Sequence record: OZ336095.1
Reading direction: 5' to 3' (one strand)
Origin: a phage
DNA length: 64,000 bases
Shown here: positions 16,959-48,504 of the stretch, piece after piece
How the letters are laid out: each line of letters opens with the position of its first letter
Position numbering within the stretch: the stretch's first letter is position 1
The notes under the pieces: model-generated
The model's input: only the letters and a program-made list of their open reading frames with translations
Databases searched by the model: none
What the model was told of the DNA's origin: nothing
Position numbers and translations under genes: made by a program

Positions 16959-16979
16959 TAACTATTGAGAGAGAATAAA

Positions 16980-22739: not shown

Positions 22740-24884
22740 ATGAACAAAGTACAGATTATTAAAAAGAACGGCTCACTTGAAGAACCTGATATCAAAAAAG
22801 TTTTAGCAGCAGTCACAAAGTCAGCTAACAGAGTTGGTTATAAAGAGCTTCCACCAGATGTTACTCAAGCTCTTGAGTCAGCATTTATGAGGATTCTGGT
22901 AAAGTCCACTAAGCAGAATAATTTGCTAATTTCTGTAAATGATATTCACAGTATTGTTGAGGGTGCTTTGGCAGAAGTCAATCACGAGATTTATGAGTCT
23001 TACTCAACATATAGAAATTACCGTAAAGAAGTTGCTCAAAATTGGGATGAGCTTTACCAGAAGACCAAAGATACACTCTTCTTAGGTGACCGAGAAAACG
23101 CTAATTTTGACAGCAGTTTAATTTCTACAAAAGGTTCAATTATTCGTGGTTATCTGACTAAAGAAATCTTTAAACAGTACCACTTAACACCAGAGGAACT
23201 TGAAGCCATTGAAAAAGGGTTTATCTATATCCATGATTTAAGAGACCTAATTTTTGGTGGTATCAACTGTTGCCTGTTTGACATTGGTAAAGTCCTGAAA
23301 GGTGGCTTTGAAATGTCTGGCATCGAATATTGTGAACCGAAGTCTGTACTGTCAGCCTTACAGGTTATTGGTGATGTAGTTCTTTCAGCAACTGCACAGC
23401 AATTTGGTGGTTTTACTTTAGCAGAGATTGATAAGGTACTTGTACCGTATGCTAAGAAGTCTCTACGCTATCATGCTGAGAAAGCATCATCTTATGGTAT
23501 TCCTAAAGAGCATTACCACAATTATGTAATGGAGCAGTTACAAATTGAACTGACTCAAGGTTTTCAGTCACTTGAGATGAAACTAAATACCGTGCCTTGT
23601 AGCCGTGGTGATTTTGCATTCACAACTTTGACATTCGGGTTACTTGAATCAGATATGTCCAATGAAGATAACCGACTGCAATATATGATTGCAAGTACTC
23701 TCCTAGATGTTCGTATGAATGGTCAAGGTAAGAGCAAGAAACCTGTTGTATTCCCTAAACTGGTTTATATTTATGACCAGAAGAGACATAATGAGAATAT
23801 CTGCCAAGGCCACCTGTACAGTAAAGCTATAGAGTGTTGCTCTAAAGCGATGTATCCAGATTTCTTAAGTGTGTCTGGTCATGGTGCTGTAGCAGAAGCT
23901 TTTGAGCGTTCTGGCAAGGTAATTTCGCCGATGGGTTGTAGAGCCTTCTTATCTCCATATCTTAATGAGGATGGGGAAGAGTTCTACGTTGGTCGTGCTA
24001 ACATTGGTGCTGTATCTTTGAACTTACCGATGATTTATCAGTACGCCAAAGAGAATGGTTTAGATTTCTGGAAAGAGCTTGATAAGTACCTAGAGATGAT
24101 TCGCAGCTTCCACAAGAAACGCTACGAAATGATTGCTAATATGCCAGCAAGTTCTAACCCTCTCGCATTCACACAGGGTGGTCTATACAAAGGGAATAAG
24201 AAACCTACTGATAAGGTTGGCTGGGATATCGTGAAGTCCTTCACAGCTTCTTTTGGGGTTACTGCGCTTGATGAATTATCTGTTCTTGCTGAAGGTAAAC
24301 GACTTCATGAAGTTGGAAGTTGCAGTTTTGCATACGATGTTCTGGAATACATCAACATGAAAACTGAAGAGTTTAAAAATGAAGATGGTTTCTTATATGC
24401 AGTCTATGGCACTCCAGCAGAATCACTTTGTGGAACTCAGCTAAAACAGTTCAGAGATATGTTTGGAGTTATCAAAGGTGTTTCTGATAAGGAATACTTT
24501 ACAAACAGCTTCCATATGAATGTTGCAGCAGACATCACACCATTTGAGAAGCAGGACTTAGAAGAACCTTTCTTCCATATCTGTAGAGGTGGCAGAATCC
24601 AGTATGTAAGGGTAGCTAATCCAGAAAACTTATCAGCACTTAAGAGTTGTATTACAAGAGGGATGTTGAAAGGTTTCTATCAGGGACTTAACTTTGACTT
24701 AGCAATCTGTGAACATTGTGGTAACAGACCAAAGGCTGATGTTGAAGAGTGTGAGGTTTGCCATTCACATGATATCTCTGTGATTAACAGGGTGTGTGGG
24801 TATCTTGGATGGACTAAGATTAAAGGTGAATCCCGAATGAACGATGCAAAAATCGCTGAGATTCGTGATAGAGTCTCTATGTAA
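22740..24884 (+). CDS. nrdD: Anaerobic ribonucleoside-triphosphate reductase
   Basis: 714 aa; C-terminal Cys cluster and glycyl-radical motif RVCGYLG. Confidence 0.9.
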   Translation: MNKVQIIKKNGSLEEPDIKKVLAAVTKSANRVGYKELPPDVTQALESAFMRILVKSTKQNNLLISVNDIHSIVEGALAEVNHEIYESYSTYRNYRKEVAQNWDELYQKTKDTLFLGDRENANFDSSLISTKGSIIRGYLTKEIFKQYHLTPEELEAIEKGFIYIHDLRDLIFGGINCCLFDIGKVLKGGFEMSGIEYCEPKSVLSALQVIGDVVLSATAQQFGGFTLAEIDKVLVPYAKKSLRYHAEKASSYGIPKEHYHNYVMEQLQIELTQGFQSLEMKLNTVPCSRGDFAFTTLTFGLLESDMSNEDNRLQYMIASTLLDVRMNGQGKSKKPVVFPKLVYIYDQKRHNENICQGHLYSKAIECCSKAMYPDFLSVSGHGAVAEAFERSGKVISPMGCRAFLSPYLNEDGEEFYVGRANIGAVSLNLPMIYQYAKENGLDFWKELDKYLEMIRSFHKKRYEMIANMPASSNPLAFTQGGLYKGNKKPTDKVGWDIVKSFTASFGVTALDELSVLAEGKRLHEVGSCSFAYDVLEYINMKTEEFKNEDGFLYAVYGTPAESLCGTQLKQFRDMFGVIKGVSDKEYFTNSFHMNVAADITPFEKQDLEEPFFHICRGGRIQYVRVANPENLSALKSCITRGMLKGFYQGLNFDLAICEHCGNRPKADVEECEVCHSHDISVINRVCGYLGWTKIKGESRMNDAKIAEIRDRVSM

Positions 24885-24888
24885 AAAC

Positions 24889-24933
24889 TTGACAAGGTGA
24901 TGTAGGTCTTGATAGGCTTACATCACCTTTTTT
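24889..24933 (+). promoter_or_regulatory. Composite element: TTGACAAGGTG promoter-like motif overlapping a terminator hairpin
   Basis: TTGACA...TAGGCT with about 18 nt spacer; hairpin ggtgatgta...tacatcacc followed by TTTTTT. Confidence 0.45.
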
Positions 24934-25632: not shown

Positions 25633-25928
25633 GTAAAACAATTCGAAGAAAAGGTTTAAAGAACGTTCATGGACTCTACGAGTGGAGAAATGAGGTACGT
25701 AACAGAGAAAATGCTTCAGATGTCTACTTCCATTCTGATATGATGTCCAGAAAAGGTGGCTCTTACGACTTCACAAGCCAGCCTTGTAGAGAGATTAAGA
25801 AGGCCACTAAACGTCTTACAAGAACACAAATAAGGCAGCTTTCTAAGACATCCTTCTTAGATGAAGATTTTGATATTGATAGCAAGTCTCCAAAGAAAGC
25901 CGCTAAGAACACTTATATGTATTGGTGA
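25629..25928 (+). CDS. Hypothetical basic protein, 99 aa
   Basis: ORF track. Confidence 0.45.
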   Translation: MSKTIRRKGLKNVHGLYEWRNEVRNRENASDVYFHSDMMSRKGGSYDFTSQPCREIKKATKRLTRTQIRQLSKTSFLDEDFDIDSKSPKKAAKNTYMYW

Positions 25929-25937
25929 GGTAACTAG

Positions 25938-26423
25938 ATGAATTACATGGAGATTCGACCATTTGACACAGCTAATGGTGAAGGGGTTCGTGTAAGCCTC
26001 TTCGTAGCTGGTTGTAAGCACCACTGTGAAGGTTGCTTTAATAAGGAATCTTGGAAGTTTAATGCTGGTAAAGAGTTCACTTATGCAAACCTTTATGGCA
26101 TCATTAAGTTAATGGATGATAATGCCATCAGTGGGCTGTCAATACTTGGTGGAGAACCTCTGGATGATAGAAACATTCAAGAGGTTACCAACATATGCAA
26201 ACGTATTAAAACCGTTTACCCAGAAAAATCTATCTGGCTCTGGACAGGTTTTCAGTTACATGAAAAAATTCACCTTGATGTGATGAAATATGTTGACGTG
26301 GTGATTGATGGTAAGTATGATTCATCTAAACCAACAGTTAAACCATATCGTGGTTCTGATAACCAAAACCTCTGGAGAAAAGAGTATGGGTGGCAAGGTG
26401 ATTGTCAGTGGAGAGCAGAGTGA
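25938..26423 (+). CDS. nrdG: Anaerobic RNR activating enzyme (radical SAM)
   Basis: 161 aa; CKHHCEGCFN Cys cluster; size and position typical of phage NrdG. Confidence 0.75.
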   Translation: MNYMEIRPFDTANGEGVRVSLFVAGCKHHCEGCFNKESWKFNAGKEFTYANLYGIIKLMDDNAISGLSILGGEPLDDRNIQEVTNICKRIKTVYPEKSIWLWTGFQLHEKIHLDVMKYVDVVIDGKYDSSKPTVKPYRGSDNQNLWRKEYGWQGDCQWRAE

Positions 26424-26504
26424 TTATTCTGGCAAATGGACTAAGGTATAACTCCAATTGGTATCACTGAAGAAGAACTTCATAAGTTCTGTATTAAACT
26501 TTAA

Positions 26505-26530
26505 TGAGAGAGAGAGAGAGAGAGAGAGAC
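26505..26530. repeat. (GA)13 dinucleotide microsatellite
   Basis: gagagagagagagagagagagagaga immediately upstream of ATG at 26536. Confidence 0.9.
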
Positions 26531-26535
26531 TAAAA

Positions 26536-26802
26536 ATGGGAATTTTAGGTAATATGAAAGCTGGATTCTTGAAGGCACTGGCAAAAGCAGCAGCAATTGT
26601 TTCTATGACTGGAAAGCAGGTCGGTGTAGATGCTTCAGCGGTTGCACAGGTTCTTACAAGCCAAATTGAACAGCAGCCTTACATCTATGTAGGTCGTGGC
26701 AAAGGTGGTAAGAAACAAGCCCACCGTCCGTCTGGTGCAGCAGCTATTAAACGAGCAGCTAAGAAAGCTCGTAACCGTAAACGTAATAAGAAGGCTAAAT
26801 AA
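26536..26802 (+). CDS. Hypothetical protein with basic C-terminal tail, 88 aa
   Basis: ORF 26458..26802 trimmed to Met 27 so the (GA)n tract is not translated. Confidence 0.4.
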   Translation: MGILGNMKAGFLKALAKAAAIVSMTGKQVGVDASAVAQVLTSQIEQQPYIYVGRGKGGKKQAHRPSGAAAIKRAAKKARNRKRNKKAK

Positions 26803-26804
26803 TC

Positions 26805-27125
26805 ATGAGCAAAGTTTATAACACTCGTAAATTACAGATTTTCTTACTGTGCCAGTTTATGGCTAGAGAGCATAACTCCTACTATTGTGGTACAGGATTC
26901 ATTAGTGATAATGATGGCTCATATCTCCCATTCAAAGAGGCTGTAAAACTCTTCAATGAAGAGAAAAGCTCTGAGAAAGATATTGAAAAGGTTAAATTAA
27001 CCTATAGTAAGAAAGATAAGAAGATTATCTGCCTAGATAACTTTGTGAAAGTTACCAAAGAAACTAAAGAGTTAATGGAAGAAAGTGAAATTCCATTCAC
27101 AAGAATCTTGAAAGTAGCTCAGTAA
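26805..27125 (+). CDS. Hypothetical protein, 106 aa
   Basis: ORF track. Confidence 0.45.
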   Translation: MSKVYNTRKLQIFLLCQFMAREHNSYYCGTGFISDNDGSYLPFKEAVKLFNEEKSSEKDIEKVKLTYSKKDKKIICLDNFVKVTKETKELMEESEIPFTRILKVAQ

Positions 27126-27138
27126 GCAGATACTATAA

Positions 27139-27165
27139 GGGAACTGTAAAGGTTCCCTTTTTATT
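27139..27165 (+). terminator. Rho-independent terminator
   Basis: gggaac...gttccc hairpin followed by TTTTT. Confidence 0.6.
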
Positions 27166-27176
27166 TTGGAGATAAT

Positions 27177-27692
27177 ATGTATCTGTCAAATCTGAAACGT
27201 TCTGCTGCAATGTCAGTGTTAAGACTCAGTTTTGAGGAACGTCAAGAGTTCATTGACTCCCACCAATACGACCCTTCCAACTCCAATCACATGATTCTCT
27301 GGAATCGTGAGAGTACTCGTGAAAGAGCATTATTTCGATATTACCCACACTATACCATAGACAACCTATATGAATGCTTTGTTGTGAAGAACACCATTAC
27401 AGTACTCAATAAACTTTGCAGATACACAGGCAGTCAATCCTTCACATTAGGTCACCACAAACCTGTTACAAAAGGTGGTGAACATCACTGTGCAAACTGG
27501 TTTATCCAGACTAAACTTGATAACCAGAAGCAAGGGGATAGTCTTTTAAGTACCCCTAAGATGACCTACGAAGAGCAAGAGAAATATATCAAAAACAATA
27601 TGCCAGATGTGCTTGACAACAACTATACAGATTTGGCAATATCTCTCCTGTTGAAGTTCGAGACAGTTTATAGGGCAACTTATAATGGCTAA
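27177..27692 (+). CDS. HNH endonuclease
   Basis: LGHHKPVTKGGEHHCANW HNH-type motif. Confidence 0.55.
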   Translation: MYLSNLKRSAAMSVLRLSFEERQEFIDSHQYDPSNSNHMILWNRESTRERALFRYYPHYTIDNLYECFVVKNTITVLNKLCRYTGSQSFTLGHHKPVTKGGEHHCANWFIQTKLDNQKQGDSLLSTPKMTYEEQEKYIKNNMPDVLDNNYTDLAISLLLKFETVYRATYNG

Positions 27693-27963
27693 AGAGAAGT
27701 GGGAGATTTTACCATTAGTCAGTGAAGGTGGTAATGGTTGTGAGATGTACATGATACGTGGTCATGTTCCAGAACCAATTGCACTTGAGATGGTAAACAA
27801 CTTTACAGATGGCTCTTACAAAGACTTAGGAGAGCCAACTATAAAGCAGCAATGGGTAAAGCCTGTACCAGACAGCACAGGTAACTGTAGTGTACTTTAT
27901 CACGTTGTAGACCCTGCAAAATGCAAATCTGCAATGGCAGTAACAAACGTAACTTTTGATTGA
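27685..27963 (+). CDS. Hypothetical protein, 92 aa
   Basis: ORF track. Confidence 0.4.
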   Translation: MAKEKWEILPLVSEGGNGCEMYMIRGHVPEPIALEMVNNFTDGSYKDLGEPTIKQQWVKPVPDSTGNCSVLYHVVDPAKCKSAMAVTNVTFD

Positions 27964-27974
27964 GAGAGAAAACT

Positions 27975-28865: not shown

Positions 28866-28887
28866 GGGGCTTAAAAGCCCCATTTTG
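28866..28887 (+). terminator. Rho-independent terminator (weak T-run)
   Basis: ggggctt-aaa-agcccc hairpin followed by ATTTTG. Confidence 0.45.
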
Positions 28888-28901
28888 AGAGAGATTAAAA
28901 G

Positions 28902-39774: not shown

Positions 39775-39829
39775 ACGGGGAGGGAATGACCTTCCCCACT
39801 AAATAAAGTCCTAAACTGGAGATTCAAAA
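39775..39829 (+). repeat. Cassette type 1 (hairpin ggggagggaatgaccttcccc + actaaataaagtcctaaactggagattc + ATG)
   Basis: One of six near-identical copies preceding small ORFs. Confidence 0.7.
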
Positions 39830-40213
39830 ATGGCATATCGTGCACCTAAATTCATCAACAAAGACAACTTTCGCAACGCACTGGAGAAGTCACTTGATGA
39901 GAATTTTAAAGGTAACATTATCGTTGTTCACGCATTCAATTTTAAGTATGATGTAAACGGGAATAGAATCAACCATTACACGGCAACCATGTTAGATGGT
40001 ACACTTTCAAGTGAAAAAGCCGTACTAAATGCACTGGCAGGACGTGGAAAGGTATTAGTAAGATGTGATAAGAGACGTTATCAGGGCGGCGCATATGGTT
40101 ATGATGATGCTGTTTACCATCTTGAAAATATGGGCTATCAAGTAGAAAAAGCTGGAGCATCACAAATCATCGGCAGCGATGGTTATGTAACTATCTTCAA
40201 AATTAACAAATAA
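39830..40213 (+). CDS. Hypothetical small protein (cassette ORF), 127 aa
   Basis: ATG directly after cassette RBS GGAG; ends KINK inside next cassette. Confidence 0.5.
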   Translation: MAYRAPKFINKDNFRNALEKSLDENFKGNIIVVHAFNFKYDVNGNRINHYTATMLDGTLSSEKAVLNALAGRGKVLVRCDKRRYQGGAYGYDDAVYHLENMGYQVEKAGASQIIGSDGYVTIFKINK

Positions 40214-40299
40214 AGTACTTTACAAGGGGCTTATAGTTCGATAAAGTAAGCCCCAGATAAAGAGCTTTACCACTAAATCCTAAATTGGAGAACTTAAAA
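40214..40299 (+). repeat. Cassette type 2 (agtactttaca + hairpin ggggcttat...ataagcccc + agataaagagctttaccac.aatcctaaa.tggaga + ATG)
   Basis: One of seven copies; hairpin arms covary between copies. Confidence 0.7.
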
Positions 40300-40593
40300 A
40301 TGGCTATTATCAAAAACGTTGTAATTACTGCAAAGACTCGTGATGACGCTCGCGTTATGGCTAAAAAGTTATGCGGGAAAGTGGTTGACAATGGAAAACA
40401 ATCCGCTGTAAGGTGGGGCGTGAAGGTTGATAAACAGTTGAAGTTAAAAAATTCACCGATAAACCTTTTTACATGTGTAAACACTATCGGGAAGACAAAT
40501 GTATACACGAAAAAGGCATACATTAGGCGCGTAGCATTAACATCCCCCATTCGTACAATGAGAAGTTATGCAAAGCTGAAAATTAACAAATAA
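40300..40593 (+). CDS. Hypothetical small basic protein (cassette ORF), 97 aa
   Basis: ATG at 40300 after cassette (track start 40285 lies in cassette). Confidence 0.45.
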   Translation: MAIIKNVVITAKTRDDARVMAKKLCGKVVDNGKQSAVRWGVKVDKQLKLKNSPINLFTCVNTIGKTNVYTKKAYIRRVALTSPIRTMRSYAKLKINK

Positions 40594-40678
40594 AGTACTT
40601 TACAGGGGGCTTAAAAGTTGATATCTTAAGCCCCAGATAAAGAGCTTTACCACTCAATCCTAAACTGGAGATTCTAAA
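40594..40678 (+). repeat. Cassette type 2 copy
   Basis: Hairpin variant gggggcttaa...ttaagcccc. Confidence 0.7.
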
Positions 40679-41191
40679 ATGAAAACTGTAGACGCTACCT
40701 TTGAAGTTGTAAAAGAAAAATTTTCCATCATCTACGAAGCGGTAAATTGCTACGAAGCAAGCCATAATCTCGATAATTGGGAGTTTACAAACGACCATCA
40801 AGGCGGTGTGACTGTTAAAAATCCTAACTGTCAGCATAATGATTTTAAATATGCAATCCCTTTGCATTACAGCCTTAAACAGCTTTCAAGTGACTATGCA
40901 AAACAAGGCCGGGAAAATCCATCAAAAGAGGCTTACGCAAGCTTACAAAAAGAACTAGAAAGAGATTTAGAGGCTTCAGAGTACAGCCTTGCCGCGAAAG
41001 TTGTGGATGCAAACGGTAACACGGTTTTAGAAAGTTTTTATCTTGGTTATGCTTTCGATTGGTGCTATCGTGACGGCGATGATTTAGAGGATAGACTAAA
41101 AGAAGAGGTGAACAATTCAGACGCAGAAACTGAAGTATTAGAACGTTTGGAATCGTTGAAAGATTCAGTGATGAATATCTTTAAGAACTAA
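40679..41191 (+). CDS. Hypothetical protein (cassette ORF), 170 aa
   Basis: ORF track; cassette upstream. Confidence 0.5.
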   Translation: MKTVDATFEVVKEKFSIIYEAVNCYEASHNLDNWEFTNDHQGGVTVKNPNCQHNDFKYAIPLHYSLKQLSSDYAKQGRENPSKEAYASLQKELERDLEASEYSLAAKVVDANGNTVLESFYLGYAFDWCYRDGDDLEDRLKEEVNNSDAETEVLERLESLKDSVMNIFKN

Positions 41192-41283
41192 ATAGATTTC
41201 TTTACACGGGGTTATCAAGCTGGTAGGATAGCCCCAGATAAAGAGATTTATCAAATAAAGCCCTTAAACTAGGAGATTCTAAA
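41192..41283 (+). repeat. Cassette type 2, diverged copy
   Basis: Hairpin ggggttatc...gatagcccc with compensatory changes. Confidence 0.6.
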
Positions 41284-41580
41284 ATGAAATTATCAAATCA
41301 AGTGCGTGAAAATCTGAGCAAATTACTCAACAAAATTGATTTCATTGAAACATCAAGGAATAGCCATGATGTTATGGAATGGTTACACGGCAAAATAAAA
41401 GGTCGTCGTGTAGTGATTTGCTTATGGAACAGTTGCAGGGAGTATAAAAAACCTGTATTACAAGTCAATATCTATGATGATACTTTTAAAAGTCCAGTAA
41501 AGTCTAAAAGCGATTTATTAGAATCTTATGAGATATCTGTAAATGGCAAAGTATCACGTAATGAGGTAACACCATGTTAA
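41284..41580 (+). CDS. Hypothetical protein (cassette ORF), 98 aa
   Basis: ORF track. Confidence 0.5.
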   Translation: MKLSNQVRENLSKLLNKIDFIETSRNSHDVMEWLHGKIKGRRVVICLWNSCREYKKPVLQVNIYDDTFKSPVKSKSDLLESYEISVNGKVSRNEVTPC

Positions 41581-41906
41581 TGACTGGTATCACTGCAATC
41601 ATTGCCATTTTCGCGCTATATAAGGCATATAAAGCCTATAATCTAGCAAATAAGGCAATCACACAGCAGGTTAGTAATAACCTTGTAGAAAGCTTTCTAG
41701 GGCGCCTCAGTGATGAGCAAATAAAGCGGCTAGAGATGAGCTTCAGATATAAAGCGAAAACCTATCAGATAAGTGACATCTTTAAAGATGATTTTCAGTT
41801 AGTTGATGATTATAATTCTCTGATAAATGCTTTAAACGTCAGTGACTTGAAAGACTATCACGCTGTAATTGTTCAAGAATTGAGCAAACGAAAACAAAAC
41901 TGTTGA
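41574..41906 (+). CDS. Hypothetical protein with N-terminal transmembrane helix, 110 aa
   Basis: MLMTGITAIIAIFALYKAY; start overlaps previous stop. Confidence 0.45.
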   Translation: MLMTGITAIIAIFALYKAYKAYNLANKAITQQVSNNLVESFLGRLSDEQIKRLEMSFRYKAKTYQISDIFKDDFQLVDDYNSLINALNVSDLKDYHAVIVQELSKRKQNC

Positions 41907-41935
41907 CACTGGTTTTCAGATAGATTAAATTACAC
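41907..41935 (+). promoter_or_regulatory. Sigma70-like promoter candidate
   Basis: TTGACA, 17 nt spacer, TAAATT; near-identical copy at 43521. Confidence 0.45.
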
Positions 41936-41939
41936 ACCA

Positions 41940-41994
41940 ACGGGGAGGGAATGACCTTCCCCACTAAATAAAGTCCTAAACTGGAGATTCAAAA
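41940..41994 (+). repeat. Cassette type 1 copy
   Basis: Same hairpin and leader as 39775..39829. Confidence 0.7.
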
Positions 41995-42153
41995 ATGTTT
42001 TTTGCAGGTGATAAAGTTGTCTGGAATGATATAGATGACGGTTTATGTACGAAAGTTGTTGTTATCTTAGAAATTGATTATATCACTGGTGTTGCAACTG
42101 TAGCAGATAATGATATAATCTTTGATGTCTTAATTAGTGAACTGTCAAAATAA
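41995..42153 (+). CDS. Hypothetical small protein, 52 aa (below ORF-track cutoff)
   Basis: ATG directly after cassette; MFFAGDKVVWNDIDDG...VADNDIIFDVLISELSK. Confidence 0.35.
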   Translation: MFFAGDKVVWNDIDDGLCTKVVVILEIDYITGVATVADNDIIFDVLISELSK

Positions 42154-42178
42154 AATCCTTAAACTAGGAGCTTTTAAA

Positions 42179-42451
42179 ATGTACACTACTAACAACGGTC
42201 GCACTTTAAACGTAACCCTTCGTCACTATGTGAACGGTGTAATGCACTTCGAGGATTTACAAGCCGAACAACATATCTTAGATTGGCAACTAGCAGGACT
42301 CCAAAAAACTGCTACCGGATACGGCAAAAAGATTCCAACTAGCTGGAAAGTACACTATGAAGGACGTTTGCGCAGAATTTACCAAGATGTATGCAGCAAT
42401 AGCGCATCTAGTTACATCATAGTAAAAGGTAAAAAGCTGCATTTAGTATAA
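42179..42451 (+). CDS. Hypothetical small protein, copy 1 (90 aa)
   Basis: ATG after AGGAG RBS (track start 42137 is GTG); MYTTNNGRTLNVTLRHYVNG... Confidence 0.45.
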   Translation: MYTTNNGRTLNVTLRHYVNGVMHFEDLQAEQHILDWQLAGLQKTATGYGKKIPTSWKVHYEGRLRRIYQDVCSNSASSYIIVKGKKLHLV

Positions 42452-42536
42452 AGTACTTTACAGGGGGCTTATAAGTCTGTACAGTAAGCTCCCGATAAAG
42501 AATTTTATCACTCAATCCTAAATTGGAGACTCTAAA
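42452..42536 (+). repeat. Cassette type 2 copy
   Basis: Identical to copy at 43027..43111. Confidence 0.7.
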
Positions 42537-42692
42537 ATGGCTATTAATAATCGTGAACTGGCTGTATTAAAAGCACGTTTGACCGTCAACCGCATCAACG
42601 TTATTACATCAGCAGCACCGGACGAAACATTACACACTGTAGCAGATAATGATATAATCTTTGATGTCTTAATTAGTGAACTGTCAAAATAA
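42537..42692 (+). CDS. Chimeric small ORF created at duplication junction (51 aa)
   Basis: N-terminus equals start of 43112 ORF (MAINNRELAVLKARL...), C-terminus equals end of 41995 ORF (...VADNDIIFDVLISELSK); in frame across junction at 42635/42636. Confidence 0.3.
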   Translation: MAINNRELAVLKARLTVNRINVITSAAPDETLHTVADNDIIFDVLISELSK

Positions 42693-42717
42693 AATCCTTA
42701 AACTAGGAGCTTTTAAA

Positions 42718-43026
42718 ATGTACACTACTAACAACGGTCGCACTTTAAACGTAACCCTTCGTCACTATGTGAACGGCACTTTAAACGTAACCCTTCGTCA
42801 CTATGTGAACGGTGTAATGCACTTCGAGGATTTACAAGCCGAACAACATATCTTAGATTGGCAACTAGCAGGACTCCAAAAAACTGCTACCGGATACGGC
42901 AAAAAGATTCCAACTAGCTGGAAAGTACACTATGAAGGACGTTTGCGCAGAATTTACCAAGATGTATGCAGCAATAGCGCATCTAGTTACATCATAGTAA
43001 AAGGTAAAAAGCTGCATTTAGTATAA
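42718..43026 (+). CDS. Hypothetical small protein, copy 2 with 12-aa internal duplication (102 aa)
   Basis: Same as 42179..42451 plus duplicated TLNVTLRHYVNG. Confidence 0.45.
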   Translation: MYTTNNGRTLNVTLRHYVNGTLNVTLRHYVNGVMHFEDLQAEQHILDWQLAGLQKTATGYGKKIPTSWKVHYEGRLRRIYQDVCSNSASSYIIVKGKKLHLV

Positions 43027-43111
43027 AGTACTTTACAGGGGGCTTATAAGTCTGTACAGTAAGCTCCCGATAAAGAATTTTATCACTCAATCCTAAATTG
43101 GAGACTCTAAA
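43027..43111 (+). repeat. Cassette type 2 copy
   Basis: As above. Confidence 0.7.
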
Positions 43112-43516
43112 ATGGCTATTAATAATCGTGAACTGGCTGTATTAAAAGCACGTTTGACCGTCAACCGCATCAACGTTATTACATCAGCAGCACCGGACGA
43201 AACATTACACAACATTATCGGGAAGATTCAAGGCGTTATCTTAGACGTTGAAAATGTAAAAAACTCATTAGCCGACGTTGCAGCAGGTATCACACTAGAT
43301 GGCGCACAATATGAAATGTCCGACATGTTAGGTAAATCAAAGGTAATGAATAAAGAGATTGATTTAAAAATGTTTAGATTTGCCGTGAAAGTGTGGCTAT
43401 CTGTTGAGTATGACGCTAATTTTGCAATCGCTGATTTCTTTGCCACATGGTTGCAACGTAATTTGGCGAGTCATGACTTCCGTGACATCTGCGATGCAAT
43501 TTACGCAGAACTCTAA
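43112..43516 (+). CDS. Hypothetical protein (cassette ORF), 134 aa
   Basis: ORF track. Confidence 0.5.
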   Translation: MAINNRELAVLKARLTVNRINVITSAAPDETLHNIIGKIQGVILDVENVKNSLADVAAGITLDGAQYEMSDMLGKSKVMNKEIDLKMFRFAVKVWLSVEYDANFAIADFFATWLQRNLASHDFRDICDAIYAEL

Positions 43517-43520
43517 AAAT

Positions 43521-43549
43521 TTTATTGACACTGATTTTTAGATAGATTA
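43521..43549 (+). promoter_or_regulatory. Sigma70-like promoter candidate
   Basis: TTGACA, 17 nt spacer, TAAATT. Confidence 0.45.
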
Positions 43550-43561
43550 AATTACTCATCA

Positions 43562-43617
43562 ACGGGGAGGGAATAACCTTCCCACTAAGTAAAGTCCTTA
43601 AACTAGGAGATTCAAAA
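43562..43617 (+). repeat. Cassette type 1 copy
   Basis: Slightly diverged hairpin. Confidence 0.65.
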
Positions 43618-43866
43618 ATGATGAATTTTTTAAATATCCCTGATACTTGCCGACTGTTGACGCAACCAGAAAATTTAGGCAAACCTTTCCTGTACCATAT
43701 GCCAGACAATACACCAAAAACATATAGCTACACGGTTAACCGCTTTACGGGTTACGCTGCAAAAAACGGTTACAAGGTTACTACTCAAAAAGTAACACTA
43801 TTTACAAATATCGAAGAGCTTCCAACAATCGCTGTAAAACTAATATTTACGAAGAAGACGCAATAA
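43618..43866 (+). CDS. Hypothetical protein (cassette ORF), 82 aa
   Basis: ORF track. Confidence 0.45.
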   Translation: MMNFLNIPDTCRLLTQPENLGKPFLYHMPDNTPKTYSYTVNRFTGYAAKNGYKVTTQKVTLFTNIEELPTIAVKLIFTKKTQ

Positions 43867-43951
43867 AGTACTTTACAGGGGGCTTAAAAGTTGATATCTT
43901 AAGCCCCAGATAAAGAGCTTTACCACTAAATCCTAAACTGGAGATTCTAAA
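43867..43951 (+). repeat. Cassette type 2 copy
   Basis: As above. Confidence 0.7.
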
Positions 43952-44155
43952 ATGACTATTATTAACGGCGTATCTATCGAGACTGTACATATCAAAGACA
44001 TTAAAGTTGGTGATGTAGTCCTTTCCCACGGCGTAGAGAAAACTGTCACTGCAAAGGATATCAAAGATGATTCTTTCATGGGTAGAACTCTCTTCGGTGA
44101 TTCTTATTGCTTAGGTTATCTTGCAGTTTTAAAAGTTGTAAAAAATAACAAATAA
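43952..44155 (+). CDS. Hypothetical protein (cassette ORF), 67 aa
   Basis: ORF track. Confidence 0.45.
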   Translation: MTIINGVSIETVHIKDIKVGDVVLSHGVEKTVTAKDIKDDSFMGRTLFGDSYCLGYLAVLKVVKNNK

Positions 44156-44240
44156 AGTACTTTACAAGGGGCTTATAGTTCGATAAAGTAAGCCCCAGAT
44201 AAAGAGCTTTACCAATCAATCCTAAACTGGAGATTCTAAA
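44156..44240 (+). repeat. Cassette type 2 copy
   Basis: As above. Confidence 0.7.
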
Positions 44241-44783
44241 ATGAAATGTTTTCACGGTACTACTCAAGAAAATTTCCTCAACCTGATTAATAACGGTAAC
44301 AAGCCATCAGGTGCATGGAATTGTTCGGATATGGACGGCAATTTTTACGTGTATCCAGAAAATAAAATCTATGGCGACGATGAGGAAGAGATAACATCGG
44401 AGGGCATTCAGCAAGCTCTAGGCAATGCCACTATCACCGCAGCTTTTCAGATGAAGACTCAAAATATTGTTATCTTAGAACTCGATATTCCAGAGGATGA
44501 GCTAAATGATGATTATTCTTGTGATAATATGTCTGGCGTAGCAAGTTTTACAGAATACTTCGATTTAAATTGGATTAAAAAGGTTTACGTAACCGAGTTT
44601 AATGCGATGTTTTCACCTTTTTGTCTTCCTTCACTGGATAACCCAAATATGAACTATCTTGATGAGACATTAGAACTACTTGCTAAAAGTGTTCAACAAT
44701 CGGACAGTATTCAGGTTTTTTGTGACATCATGGATACACTGACAGAAAACATCGCAGAAGAGGATTTAAAGAGCTTTTTCTAA
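44241..44783 (+). CDS. Hypothetical acidic protein (cassette ORF), 180 aa
   Basis: ORF track. Confidence 0.5.
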   Translation: MKCFHGTTQENFLNLINNGNKPSGAWNCSDMDGNFYVYPENKIYGDDEEEITSEGIQQALGNATITAAFQMKTQNIVILELDIPEDELNDDYSCDNMSGVASFTEYFDLNWIKKVYVTEFNAMFSPFCLPSLDNPNMNYLDETLELLAKSVQQSDSIQVFCDIMDTLTENIAEEDLKSFF

Positions 44784-44848
44784 AACCTATACAATCACCT
44801 TATAAACACTGATTAGCCCCTCACAGGGGCTTTTAGAGGGCTTAAATC

Positions 44849-45082
44849 ATGCTTACAACCGTTTATCTCATCCTTTCTATTTGTAATGGCCATTCATGTG
44901 ACTTTAAAGGGCTTGAGGAGTTTACAGGGAGTAAAGAAAATGCTGTTCAAGTGTGCCAGATAGCAAGGCAAGACTACCCCGCCAGTGATGATATACAATG
45001 TTACTTTAAGACAGAAGATGAAGACGGTATCTATTTTGACAGCGTAGATGGTCAGTATGAAATTATCATTGAAAAAGACTAG
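44849..45082 (+). CDS. Hypothetical protein, 77 aa
   Basis: ORF track. Confidence 0.45.
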   Translation: MLTTVYLILSICNGHSCDFKGLEEFTGSKENAVQVCQIARQDYPASDDIQCYFKTEDEDGIYFDSVDGQYEIIIEKD

Positions 45083-45116
45083 ACAAGCCTGATAAAAATC
45101 TGTAAATTGTCAATAA

Positions 45117-45172
45117 ACGGGGAGGGAATGACCTTCCCCACTAAATAAAGTCCTAAACTGGAGATTCTAAAA
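45117..45172 (+). repeat. Cassette type 1 copy
   Basis: As above. Confidence 0.7.
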
Positions 45173-45514
45173 ATGGCTTATGTAACTGTAATTACCAATA
45201 AAGAAAATTCATCTTGGTCAACTCAAGTCAGTGATAAGATGTCACCTATGCAGTGCCTAAAATACTTTGAGCAGTGGAACAAAGGCGAGGGTGTCAGCCC
45301 CTTTCAAGTGATGCAAATCATCCATACGGATAACGAAGGGAACAAAACGACACTTAATAGCGAATATTACGCAAATCGTTTTGAGAGTCGAGTTGAAACG
45401 ATGAAGGGGCTACGTGAGGCCGGATATGGGCACATTGCCGCCCTGTTATGGGATAACCTACTAAAAAACCAACGTATCAGCTATGTAAAACCTGAAAAAA
45501 TATTCATCAGTTAA
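45173..45514 (+). CDS. Hypothetical protein (cassette ORF), 113 aa
   Basis: ORF track. Confidence 0.5.
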   Translation: MAYVTVITNKENSSWSTQVSDKMSPMQCLKYFEQWNKGEGVSPFQVMQIIHTDNEGNKTTLNSEYYANRFESRVETMKGLREAGYGHIAALLWDNLLKNQRISYVKPEKIFIS

Positions 45515-45711
45515 TCAATAACTTACAAAAAACTTTTAAAAAAGTGTTGACAATACCCATTGACATTGGTAACTTTGTTCGAGGGGGTTATCTAAAAGGG
45601 ATTCACTTAACAGATTCTTTATATATAAACTTAAAAATTGCTTGCAATCACTTTCTAAAAGCCCTATAGTATCTATCAAGCAAAACAACTTCCTAAACTG
45701 GAGAAATCAAG

Positions 45712-46239
45712 ATGAATAAGTTCACAGCAATCAATACTATTCGCTCAAAAGACGTAATGAAAAAGCCTGTCAAGGATACTTTCGAATTTACCCTGAAAGA
45801 TAAAACTTTTGCAGTTATCACGAAAGGGGAAGATAAGAAATATTACATACATCGCCCAAATCAGCAAATGATAACAGCTAACAGCTTTATGAAGGCCGTA
45901 GCGGTTATCCTGCCGGATTATATGGCTATCGTCGCAGAAATTCACGAAATGGCTATCAAGGCGACTAAAAACGAGCTAAACCAATACAAAATGGCTTATG
46001 AACGCTCTATAAAGTCTCATAACCTTTTTATTGCAATTTTCTACACTGGCGTGTCTGCTACTGGTACAGGCAATCAACAACACCCAATCTATGAAGTTGA
46101 AAAACTGTTTACAAGTGAATACAAAACAGATATTTTTAAAGTAACGTTAGGCAAGGCATTAACAGACTTAATCAAGCTTTACGAAAAATCTTTAAAAAAT
46201 TTAGAAAATGCACTTGACGAAACGTTATCAAATCTTTAA
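45712..46239 (+). CDS. Hypothetical protein, 175 aa
   Basis: ORF track; GGAG RBS. Confidence 0.5.
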   Translation: MNKFTAINTIRSKDVMKKPVKDTFEFTLKDKTFAVITKGEDKKYYIHRPNQQMITANSFMKAVAVILPDYMAIVAEIHEMAIKATKNELNQYKMAYERSIKSHNLFIAIFYTGVSATGTGNQQHPIYEVEKLFTSEYKTDIFKVTLGKALTDLIKLYEKSLKNLENALDETLSNL

Positions 46240-46250
46240 AGTATCTATCA

Positions 46251-46305
46251 AGGGGAAGAAATCACTTCCCCACTAAATAAAGTCCTTAAACTAGGGGTTA
46301 TCAAG
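46251..46305 (+). repeat. Cassette type 1 copy (diverged)
   Basis: ggggaagaaatcacttcccc hairpin plus conserved leader. Confidence 0.6.
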
Positions 46306-46569
46306 ATGGAAAACGTAGAATTAACCACACTATTGCAGATTGCAACTGACAAAGAAGATGTAGCACTGTTTCACCGTATCGAAAGCGATTTATTCAATGG
46401 TGAAATCATCAAAGAATCTTACGAAGTTGTCGGATTCAAAGATGGTAAAGCATTTGGATTCTTTGACCTCGACAAAGGCAACGCTGTTACAAAGTACGAT
46501 GTTTTGTCTTGTGAGATTCTTACAAAATACAACGAAAAAAGGCTTGCAACATACGCCAATATGCAGTAA
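46306..46569 (+). CDS. Hypothetical protein (cassette ORF), 87 aa
   Basis: ORF track. Confidence 0.45.
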   Translation: MENVELTTLLQIATDKEDVALFHRIESDLFNGEIIKESYEVVGFKDGKAFGFFDLDKGNAVTKYDVLSCEILTKYNEKRLATYANMQ

Positions 46570-46580
46570 ATTACTAATTA

Positions 46581-46633
46581 ACGGGGGATGACCTCCCCCA
46601 CTAAGTAAAGTCCTAAACTGGAGAATCTAAATT
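46581..46633 (+). repeat. Cassette type 1 copy (diverged)
   Basis: gggggatgacctccccc hairpin plus conserved leader. Confidence 0.6.
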
Positions 46634-46882
46634 ATGTCAACTATCCGCGTAACTGTTAATGCTTATGGCTGCCACGAACTTGATGCAAAATTCGATATCG
46701 GTGGAACAAATAACACCTTTGACCTTATCAAAATGCTGATTCAGCAGGTGCTACCAGATTATAACCCTACCGATGACTTTTGGAAGGACGCTGTAAAAGA
46801 AGCCATAAACGAGGAATATCACTACCACTACTGGGGAGAAAAAATTGTCTCCCTGTACTACAACAAGCAAGATTATAACTAA
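46634..46882 (+). CDS. Hypothetical protein (cassette ORF), 82 aa
   Basis: ORF track; last plus-strand gene before the repeat region. Confidence 0.45.
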   Translation: MSTIRVTVNAYGCHELDAKFDIGGTNNTFDLIKMLIQQVLPDYNPTDDFWKDAVKEAINEEYHYHYWGEKIVSLYYNKQDYN

Positions 46883-46920
46883 TCGACGCAGCGGGGCTAT
46901 TTAGCCCCAGATACCTTGAC

Positions 46921-46946
46921 AGCCCCTATTTAAAGGGGCTTTTTTA
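46921..46946 (+). terminator. Rho-independent terminator
   Basis: agcccct...aggggct hairpin followed by TTTTTT; second hairpin ggggctatttagcccc just upstream. Confidence 0.6.
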
Positions 46947-46950
46947 CGTC

Positions 46951-48504
46951 TATCCAATCCTTATACAATCCCTTTCCTTTCCTTTCCAGAATCTTACTAG
47001 ACCTTAAAAGCAATAACTCTATAGTCTACTCTATAACCTCTTATCAAATCAACTTAAATAAAAGCCAATAACCCCAGAAAGGGGATGGCCCATTTAAACG
47101 CTCTATAAAGCTCTATAACATCCTTATCAACCTAACTTAAGGGATTGCATTAACTCACCCTAAAAAGCCCTTTATAAAGCTTCCTAGAGACTTAAAAGAA
47201 TCTTATAAGGGTGTAAGCTTTATCGTCTCGTTAGTATTCTTGTGAATAACTAAACAACCCCTTGATAGTCACTAAAAAGTATGTTATAGGGGCTATAAAG
47301 TAGCTTAAAAGTTGCTTAAAAGTTACGTAAATGCTAGCCCCCTTAACATTTTCTTAACAATTTCTTAACAATCCCTACATAGTTATGCTTGTTAGAGACT
47401 TGTTAGCCCCTTGTTAAATCTCTGTTAAGACCACGTAAAAACCTTGTAAGAGTCTTTGACATAGCCTTAAAAGCTCCTGTAAAGCCCTATAAAGAGCTAT
47501 CCATACAGTTGAGGGGTAGATACTAGGAAGAGGCTTAAAAGAACTTATAAGGGGCTATAGAGAGCTTTTAAGAGGCATGTTTAGAGAATCACTAAGAGAG
47601 AAAGGGAACGATAAGAAAAGAGATAGTGACCATGTTAATAGCTTGTTAAAAAGATTAAACACTTGTTAGGAACTTGTTAATTATCCCTACAAAATAACTC
47701 TTTAAAATTAACTTGTTAGCTCTTGTTAGTCATCTGTTAAGATTCTGTAAAGTCTATGTATCAACTGTTAAGAAACTGTTACATCCCTGTTAGTTCTGTT
47801 AAGAGTCTATTAAGACCTTTGAAGAGTTGTTAAGAGCTTGAGAGAGTTGTTAAGAGATTGTTAAGGATATTTTAAAATTTTGCAAAGTACTTGTAAGGGA
47901 GTTGTTAAGGGTTACCAAGCAGATATACATCCTCAACAGATATTTTTGAGTTCCTTCAAAGACCCTAAAAAATGACTTGATAGCCCTATTTTATAAAAAT
48001 TTTAAAATTCTGAATAATTACCTAGACAGTCTTTTAAAAATACAGGCATAAACAGGCTTATAAGATACCTTGTTAGTACCGTGTTAGACCTTGTGAGATA
48101 AGGTCTGTAAAGATATTCCTGTTAAGTTTGTTAAAACAGTCTATATAGAGGCTTAGTAGCTCCTAGTGAACACCTATAGAGGGTATCATAGCTGACATAG
48201 AGATTAAGAGGTGTATAGGAGCTTCTAAGAGGGTGTAGAGAGATGGTTAAGGTGATTGTATAGGTTGTTAAGAAGGCTTGTTAGAGGGCTTGTTAGAAGG
48301 GTTATACAGAGGGGCTATTAAGACCACTAGATAGTTACTAAGACACTATATAGTACTATATAACTATATAGAGAGTAAGATTAAGAAGGTTGTTAAGAAG
48401 GATAGATATTTTATTCACATATGATGGTGACCCAGAGGTTGGGACAACCGATAAAATTTTATAAAAATTAAAAAGCCCCCGATTAAGGAGGCTCTTAAGA
48501 TATT
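46951..48504. repeat. 1.6 kb ORF-free region dense in short repeats
   Basis: No ORF of 60 aa or more on either strand; more than 25 copies of YTGTTAAG/YTGTTAG (some as CTTAACAA) and many CTTAAAAG/CTATAAAG/CTTATAAG units. Confidence 0.85.

Follow-up and report, generated by a model that had tools for sequence, protein, structure and literature searches.

The sequence analysed in this study, hereafter called the window, is a stretch of 64,000 nucleotides (nt) from the phage sequence record OZ336095.1 and belongs to a Felixounavirus (Felix O1-like, Ounavirinae). Here we describe a (GA)n microsatellite on its + strand, placed directly in front of a small conserved gene. The perfect (GA)12 tract covers 24 bp at positions 26506-26529 (regex count), with T26505 on its 5' side and C26530 on its 3' side, and Tandem Repeats Finder returned a period of 2, 12.0 copies and 100% matches. 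The tract is followed by the spacer CTAAAA (26530-26535, + strand), which leaves 6 nt to ATG 26536, the start codon of a gene for a basic protein of 88 amino acids (aa) (26536-26802, + strand; phrog_4425, unknown function, E=1e-48). An earlier interpretation made from the letters alone (the sequence-only reading) had described a perfect (GA)13 repeat of 26 bp ending 5 nt before this ATG. A perfect GA repeat was indeed present, but it comprised 12 units and 24 bp, and the gap counted to the ATG was 6 nt. The small basic protein gene placed downstream by the same reading was recovered, with a strongly basic C-terminus and conservation across the Ounavirinae.

A run of this length was far outside the chance expectation. 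With a first-order Markov model of the window, 1.5e-9 (GA)12 runs were expected per strand in 64 kb. Among the dinucleotide runs counted in the window, 83 had 3 units, nine had 4 units and one had 5 units, the last being the runner-up to the single run of 12. In a survey of mycobacteriophage genomes the highest dinucleotide iteration was 9 (PMC6426759), so that the assertion that such repeats are rare in phages was fair. The tract thus has the first property of a microsatellite, being a perfect tandem repeat with a unit in the range of 1-6 bp and a length far above chance. Our search of the literature on Felixounavirus microsatellites and on dinucleotide repeats at Shine-Dalgarno (SD) sites gave nothing specific, and no paper was found that mentions the tract.

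The length of the tract was compared among 48 sequence-verified loci, drawn from IMG/VR, GenBank, ENA, NCBI and Logan. The number of units (n) was 4 in 26 loci, 3 in six and 5 in another six; n=6 was seen three times, n=7 and n=8 twice each, and n=10, n=11 and n=12 once each, so that the window carries the longest allele found. In the alignment the alleles differed by whole GA units only and the flanks were invariant. The alignment spans of about 106 GenBank records corresponded overwhelmingly to n=4, the outliers being DE17, fjerdesal, LF110P2 (two records) and SSBS18 with n=5, JLBYU32 with n=6, SPJ41 with n=7 and P219 with n=11. P219 and SPJ41 were identical over 1,066 bp on the left and 1,516 bp on the right of the tract (2,582 bp) and were 4 units apart within it; outside the tract region their identity was ~98%. 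Similarly, ten contigs encoding exactly the 88-aa protein of the window had n=4 (four contigs), 5 (two), 6 (two), 7 and 10. Such whole-unit length polymorphism between close relatives with identical flanks is the second property of a microsatellite.

The distribution of the longer alleles was followed on a local neighbour-joining tree of the flanks. The window (n=12) clustered with L047 (n=7), L041 and L048 (n=6) and L045 (n=10), and the outgroups of this cluster had n=4. Further expanded clades were L001/L002 (n=8), P219/SPJ41 (n=11 and 7), L005/L006/JLBYU32 (n=5, 5 and 6), L004/L042 (n=5) and L043 (n=5), and at least five separate clades with expansions were counted. Two laboratory-evolved lines, VpaE1_ev78 and VpaE1_ev108, both had n=4, and a scan of metagenomes with DNA patterns for n=4-19 returned three matches, all with n=4, too few to be informative. 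We concluded that the expansions are recurrent and independent and have arisen at least five times. From these comparisons we infer slipped-strand mutation with a length threshold, of which the pattern would be the signature. The proneness to slippage proposed in the sequence-only reading is borne out by the whole-unit differences from n=3 to n=12 among the 48 relatives, with their invariant flanks, and by the pair of P219 and SPJ41.

The placement of the tract relative to the gene was equally constant. In 48/48 verified loci a GA tract stood 5-7 nt before the orthologous ATG, and it was retained even in relatives with ~53% protein identity and a differing intergenic sequence (..ATTGAGAGAGATACGAAATG). 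The spacer between tract and ATG measured 6 nt in 37/48 loci (range 5-7 nt), and its sequence was CTAAAA in 26/48 loci, including all those with n>=6. The same motif was used in front of other genes of the window. (GA)>=3 was located 2-12 nt (mostly 5-8) 5' of 13 long open reading frames (ORFs), GAGAG was found 5' of 14/99 crude gene starts (~14%) compared with 1.1% of random positions, and the other (GA)4 tracts on the + strand preceded start codons in 4/4 cases. The calculated energy of the duplex GAGAGAGA:GAUCACCUCCUUA, the latter being the anti-SD at the 3' end of the 16S rRNA, was -5.0 kcal/mol, with -5.2 for GGAG and -2.9 for (GA)3; in this duplex GAG-A-GAG paired against CUCCUU with one bulged A. 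Additionally, the Meda record annotates a GAG at the position of the tract as ribosome-binding site. At the sequence level the tract hence shows complementarity to 16S rRNA, a spacing of ~5-9 nt to a genuine start, a conserved position and reuse of the motif. Because of the conserved position, the use of the motif at other genes and the adequate pairing energy, the tract is best read as the predicted SD element of the 88-aa gene. The SD consensus given for a member of the genus is AGGAGGA (PMC4837284), and GAGAG is therefore a minority SD variant.

Three further (GA)4 ribosome-binding sites on the + strand of the window served as controls. The site of prs (27962-27969) had n of 4 or less in 20 loci and was altered by point substitution, not by expansion. 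At the site of nadV (28887-28894) the alignment spans deviated by at most +2 nt, so that it was essentially length-stable, and at the site of a gene for a 76-aa protein (16967-16974) no increase in span was found in 60 records sampled from 215. None of the three had more than about one extra unit among the relatives. Expansion was seen in 16/48 loci at the tract and in 0/20 at the prs site (Fisher p=0.002, kinship ignored). As the control sites were stable, the instability is specific to the tract site. Either expansion is deleterious at the control genes and tolerated at the tract, or it is favoured at the tract, and the sequence context gives no explanation for the difference; relaxed constraint accounts for the site-specific expansion as well as positive selection does.

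We concluded that the Felixounavirus tract is a genuine (GA)n microsatellite which is hypervariable, expands recurrently and descends from an SD element of the GAGAG type. In the mechanism that we propose, the genus norm would be (GA)4 at 6 nt before the AUG, serving as the SD-type element of a conserved small Felixounavirus gene, with GAG-A-GAG pairing to the CUCCUU of the 16S 3' end around one bulged A at a strength similar to that of GGAG. This short purine repeat would act as a proto-microsatellite that is occasionally lengthened by replication slippage, and above about 5-6 units the tract would keep changing its length quickly. As gains and losses of units would take place within the tract, the CTAAAA and the 3' edge of the tract would stay fixed, and the productive register between SD and AUG would be kept at every length. 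All that the extra units would then contribute is SD copies further upstream, outside the register, and a stretch of unstructured purine leader; these copies might slightly raise 30S capture by a standby effect or slightly lower it by a decoy effect. The number of overlapping GAGAGAG registers was 9 at n=12 and 1 at n=4. When the leader was folded in silico with n=0-20, the minimum free energy was unchanged from n=4 upwards, and the mean unpaired probability at positions -15..+13 went from 0.40 (n=4) to 0.45 (n=12). Since the 3' edge and the spacer are fixed and the accessibility is barely shifted, at most a quantitative effect is expected. We consider it reasonably probable that expansion is tolerated and that translation is affected quantitatively at most. 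The modulation of translation initiation by repeat length, as suggested in the sequence-only reading, would probably amount to a weak effect. The 88-aa gene itself is probably dispensable, and we infer that expansion is nearly neutral.

Several points weigh against this interpretation. The SD function and the effects on expression are predictions, and the evidence for slippage comes from the comparison between phages. A GAG-type SD is weaker than the AGGAGGA consensus (PMC4837284). Moreover, the failure of the three control (GA)4 sites to expand hints that length is not always neutral. Full neutrality would predict expansion at the control sites as well, so that selection differs between the sites, and this difference could be positive selection at the tract.

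The reading frames that cross the tract were translated and compared with the annotations of relatives. The sequence-only reading had proposed that a frameshift could fuse an upstream frame, which translates the repeat as ERERERER, to the gene. This proposal was not supported as it stands: the tract of 24 nt holds a whole number of codons, so that in the window the ERERERER frame and that of the gene are already one, the upstream frame is no gene, and all three classes of n mod 3 occur among the verified loci (29, 10 and 9 loci). The continuous frame runs from TTG 26458 and forms a spurious in-frame extension of 26 codons (26458-26535, + strand; ..NERERERERLK), which loses its frame with the gene whenever n is not divisible by 3. 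No SD stronger than a distant AAGG was found before TTG 26458, and its frame passes through what remains of a deleted ORF without being the frame of that ORF. A second frame, from the ATG of a TAATG overlap, gives the mini-ORF MRERERERD* (26504-26533, + strand), whose frame and length depend on n and which in the window ends 2 nt before the real ATG 26536. The ATG at 26504 is lacking in L010, L011, L013, L015 and L018-L029 and is not conserved beyond the close clade. With n=2 mod 3 the 26504-type ATG is fused to the gene (annotated so in P219), with n=0 mod 3 the TTG is fused (annotated so in JLBYU32), and n=1 mod 3, the modal class, gives no fusion. Because all classes of n mod 3 were seen and the upstream ATG is missing in distant relatives, we regard the tract as an untranslated leader.

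The repeat is also the reason for inconsistent N-terminal annotations across the records. The annotated products of the gene have 88 aa, 110 aa in JLBYU32 (n=6, from the TTG), 98 aa in P219 (from the ATG of TAATG) and 93 aa in many metagenomic calls beginning with MRETK-, and in KhF2 the gene is not called at all. The MRETK-extended proteins form a cluster of 149 member sequences in a public protein collection. For the 114-aa TTG-extended product of the window (n=12) no record was found on look-up. We concluded that the extended products are gene-calling artefacts. The start at ATG 26536 is backed by the annotations of SeKF_63 and Meda and by MGI(L/F/W) N-termini, which are conserved in most relatives.

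The upstream ORF remnant arises from a 157-bp deletion, which the alignment located in the window as well as in JLBYU32 and SeKF_63 when compared with Meda, P219 and SPJ41. Its junction lies at ~26442/26443. The deletion destroys an ORF of 91 aa that is intact in Meda, P219 and SPJ41, where it overlaps the end of nrdG; it is annotated as a coding sequence (CDS) of 276 nt in SPJ41 and Meda and with a longer 5' start in P219. What is left in the window is the 3' end of this ORF, with its last 19 codons (..GITEEELHKFCIKL*) and the stop TAA at 26502-26504, at 26443-26504 on the + strand (alignment and translation). As 157 is not a multiple of 3, the remnant is non-coding. A link between expansion and the deletion was considered and rejected, since expansions were present in 5/28 records with the deletion and in 3/32 without it.

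Among the other explanations, the one with most in its favour takes the tract for a translational rheostat or contingency locus, in which the length would tune 30S capture through extra SD registers, a standby site or titration into unproductive registers, and the recurrent expansions would be selected since it would be of advantage on different hosts to vary how much of the basic 88-aa protein is made. The confinement of independent, recurrent expansions to the tract site, with three equivalent (GA)4 sites fixed, is what this explanation would lead one to expect, and the site specificity keeps it alive; the increase from 1 GAGAGAG register at n=4 to 9 at n=12 would provide the means. Contingency-locus repeats have also been reported in coliphages (bioRxiv 10.1101/2025.10.21.683753) and, as far as cited in PMC10877375, in Campylobacter phages (Sorensen 2021). 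However, the spacing between SD and AUG in the proximal register is the same at all n, the predicted structure and accessibility barely change, and n=4 clearly predominates over all other alleles (26/48 verified loci and the bulk of the ~106 GenBank records). No association of length with host or with the upstream deletion was evident, and with no known function of the gene there is no phenotype to link. We consider this explanation unlikely, though the most serious of the competitors. A stronger form of it, in which the ribosome-binding site itself houses a contingency locus whose (GA)n slippage continuously yields subpopulations with different amounts, or with Arg-Glu-extended isoforms, of a histone-tail-like basic protein and the variability is selected, appears clearly improbable to us; if it were true, no contingency locus described earlier in a phage would have been a dinucleotide repeat acting at the level of translation. 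As the 88-aa protein belongs to a family of unknown function (phrog_4425), arguments on the selection of its dosage are limited.

The remaining explanations were given far less weight. In an N-terminal isoform switch, n mod 3 would set the fusion to an upstream start (the TAATG ATG at n=2 mod 3, TTG 26458 at n=0 mod 3) and thereby add an (Arg-Glu)n extension, which turns the fusion proposed in the sequence-only reading into a functional one. The frame relations were verified by translation, the stop of the intact upstream ORF overlaps the ATG, as would suit termination-reinitiation, an extended product is annotated in P219 (n=11), and MRETK-extended products are called in the 149-member cluster. 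Against this, no recognisable SD precedes either upstream start, the more distant relatives lack the ATG, the modal n=4 fuses nothing, the extension has no conserved sequence, and the 114-aa product of the window is not on record; in the window the upstream ORF is deleted, which makes coupling impossible. Such a switch is accordingly very unlikely. We find it just as hard to believe in a DNA-structure element. Homopurine mirror tracts are able to form H-DNA, an intramolecular triplex, and the tract could in this way be a pause site for replication or transcription or a hotspot of recombination. It is a perfect 24-bp homopurine-homopyrimidine mirror repeat, above the ~20 bp criterion that is passed by expanded alleles only, and it lies in a mosaic region with the 157-bp deletion nearby. 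Most relatives, however, have 8 bp, which is too short, so that H-DNA is not a conserved role of the site; in vivo triplex formation in phage DNA is without evidence, and the deletion also occurs in genomes with n=4, e.g. SeKF_63. Lastly, the lengths could have been mis-called in sequencing or assembly and the polymorphism be technical, as dinucleotide repeats can stutter in PCR-based libraries. This can practically be set aside: the 24-bp tract fits well inside a single read, varied lengths were found in dozens of independent assemblies (GenBank, IMG/VR, ENA, NCBI and Logan), the lengths follow the phylogeny with an expanded clade against n=4 outgroups, and the control GA tracts were without such noise.

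The tolerated microsatellite at a predicted SD element, which we prefer, was compared with known systems. In Mycoplasma mycoides subsp. capri an (AG)12 tract in the gene of a type III methyltransferase (mod) is a phase-variable dinucleotide tract (PMC3498834). The phage tract resembles such bacterial contingency loci in being a perfect dinucleotide repeat of ~12 units in the 5' region of a gene, with whole-unit changes between near-identical genomes and with slippage as the presumed mechanism. In the bacterial loci, however, the tract lies in the ORF or in a promoter spacer and gives on/off switching, whereas the phage tract is untranslated, lies 5' of the AUG and has a fixed 3' boundary, and no switch is predicted. 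The architecture of a contingency locus was accordingly not found: the tract is outside the ORF, no promoter match overlaps it, its 3' edge and the spacer are invariant, and the accessibility is near-constant. We do not think that the tract is an on/off switch. Among phages, homopolymer tracts in ORFs of T2, T4 and others have been described as contingency loci (bioRxiv 10.1101/2025.10.21.683753), as have polyG tracts in Campylobacter phage genes according to the citation of Sorensen et al. 2021 in PMC10877375. In these cases, as with the GA tract, a virulent phage carries a simple repeat that is hypermutable and gives rise to heterogeneity between close relatives. The published loci, however, are mononucleotide runs (6 bp or more) in coding sequence that act by frameshift, whereas the GA tract is a dinucleotide repeat forming a ribosome-binding site; the preprint census left out dinucleotides and ribosome-binding sites (bioRxiv 10.1101/2025.10.21.683753). 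Slippage-prone simple repeats were thus already known, and a dinucleotide repeat forming a ribosome-binding site was not among the nearest published analogues that we found.

The tract also has the features of SD elements, tandem SD registers and standby sites, which are purine-rich, complementary to 16S rRNA, located 5-9 nt before the AUG and found at many genes. It departs from the usual SD, GGAGG, in that it consists of GAGAG, pairs with one A bulged out and is repeated to give 9 overlapping registers. In the life cycle of microsatellites, described mainly for eukaryotes, a proto-microsatellite crosses a length threshold and turns unstable. Likewise, (GA)3-4 is stable genus-wide, including the lines VpaE1_ev78 and VpaE1_ev108, and clades at n>=6 show many lengths; here, unlike in the usual case, the genome is the compact one of a lytic phage and the repeat is seeded by a signal that functions in translation. 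The tract is a clean natural case of a functional signal, a GAGAG-type SD, seeding a microsatellite, and it offers a natural allelic series from n=3 to n=12 with identical flanks for the effect of reiterated SD registers on initiation. A regulatory role of the tract is unproven; should the tract tune expression, the recently proposed idea of phage contingency loci would extend from frameshifting homopolymers to translation signals. The genus consists of virulent enterobacterial phages widely used for typing and biocontrol, and a PCR across the tract could give a variable-number-repeat marker to separate near-identical Felixounavirus isolates and to follow them through production or therapy.

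The 88-aa protein had no match in Pfam, among PDB sequences or in PADLOC. An AlphaFold2 model based on an alignment of 12 sequences was of low confidence (pLDDT 63, pTM 0.25) and contained three helices. The C-terminal 37 residues (VGRGKGGKKQAHRPSGAAAIKRAAKKARNRKRNKKAK) were nearly invariant across relatives, and the N-terminal half was strongly divergent. This tail, encoded at 26686-26799 of the window, was found fused to the upstream ORF in P0027. It contains GRGKGGK, which we take to match the N-terminal tail of histone H4. These features suggest a modular nucleic-acid-binding tail. Two database versions of the protein, P0009 and P0028, switch into the overlapping +1 frame after GRGKG (..VRNKPT..NHEQSL; window 26696-26821), which implies indels of 1 nt in the GGTGGTAAGAAAC region, either sequencing errors or real frameshift alleles.

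Over positions 25900-27200 the window had 92-97.5% identity to many Escherichia and Salmonella phages. The upstream gene in the transcription unit of the tract is nrdG, which encodes the anaerobic ribonucleotide reductase activase (25938-26423, + strand; ORF and annotations, with Pfam Fer4_12 and Radical_SAM on orthologues). Its end lies 112 nt before ATG 26536, a distance that is not an ordinary spacer. A hairpin scan revealed terminator-like hairpins at 24894-24929 and at 27137-27159 (+ strand), which open and close an operon of six genes that holds the tract and consists of three small ORFs, nrdG, the 88-aa gene and a DUF7390 gene. A role of the repeat as a promoter spacer was rejected, with no sigma-70 match overlapping the tract and with the hairpins bracketing the six-gene unit. 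On inspection, (GA)n fits neither the binding motif of Hfq, (ARN)n, nor that of CsrA (GGA). An Rfam scan of 26200-26900 by E-value gave a chance match only and no RNA family at the tract. The 'attP' feature in the records of KhF2 and KhF3 was dismissed as irrelevant, as it lies near the downstream terminator and not at the tract.

Some further observations were made in the window. A perfect 7-bp inverted repeat, AGAACTT-CAT-AAGTTCT, is located within the ORF remnant at 26473-26493, 13 nt 5' of the tract. Close relatives preserve its stem, which however falls on the conserved codons EEL..FC, and the inverted repeat may reflect mere coding constraint. The nrdD gene is annotated as two CDSs with small ORFs between them in P219 and SPJ41, and is a single ORF of 714 aa in the window (22740-24884). 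The split gene fits the homing-endonuclease or intron polymorphism that has been described in the genus (PMC4837284). At 39800-46900 on the + strand, at least 14 small genes each stand behind a near-identical leader of ~22 nt (CCTAAACTGGAGATTCTAAA-ATG); the leader resembles a cassette, either a ribosome-binding site or promoter-proximal, that recurs at the head of the genes in a small-ORF block. The gene-free region at 46900-48400, between the blocks of + and - strand genes, is packed with direct repeats of an 11-nt period (CTTAACAATTT, AAAGTTGCTTA, TTGTTAAGAG...) and, if these are iteron-like, may serve as an origin or in regulation. A perfect tandem duplication of 36 bp x 2 was detected at 42740-42812, inside the ORF at 42718-43026 (Tandem Repeats Finder score 146).

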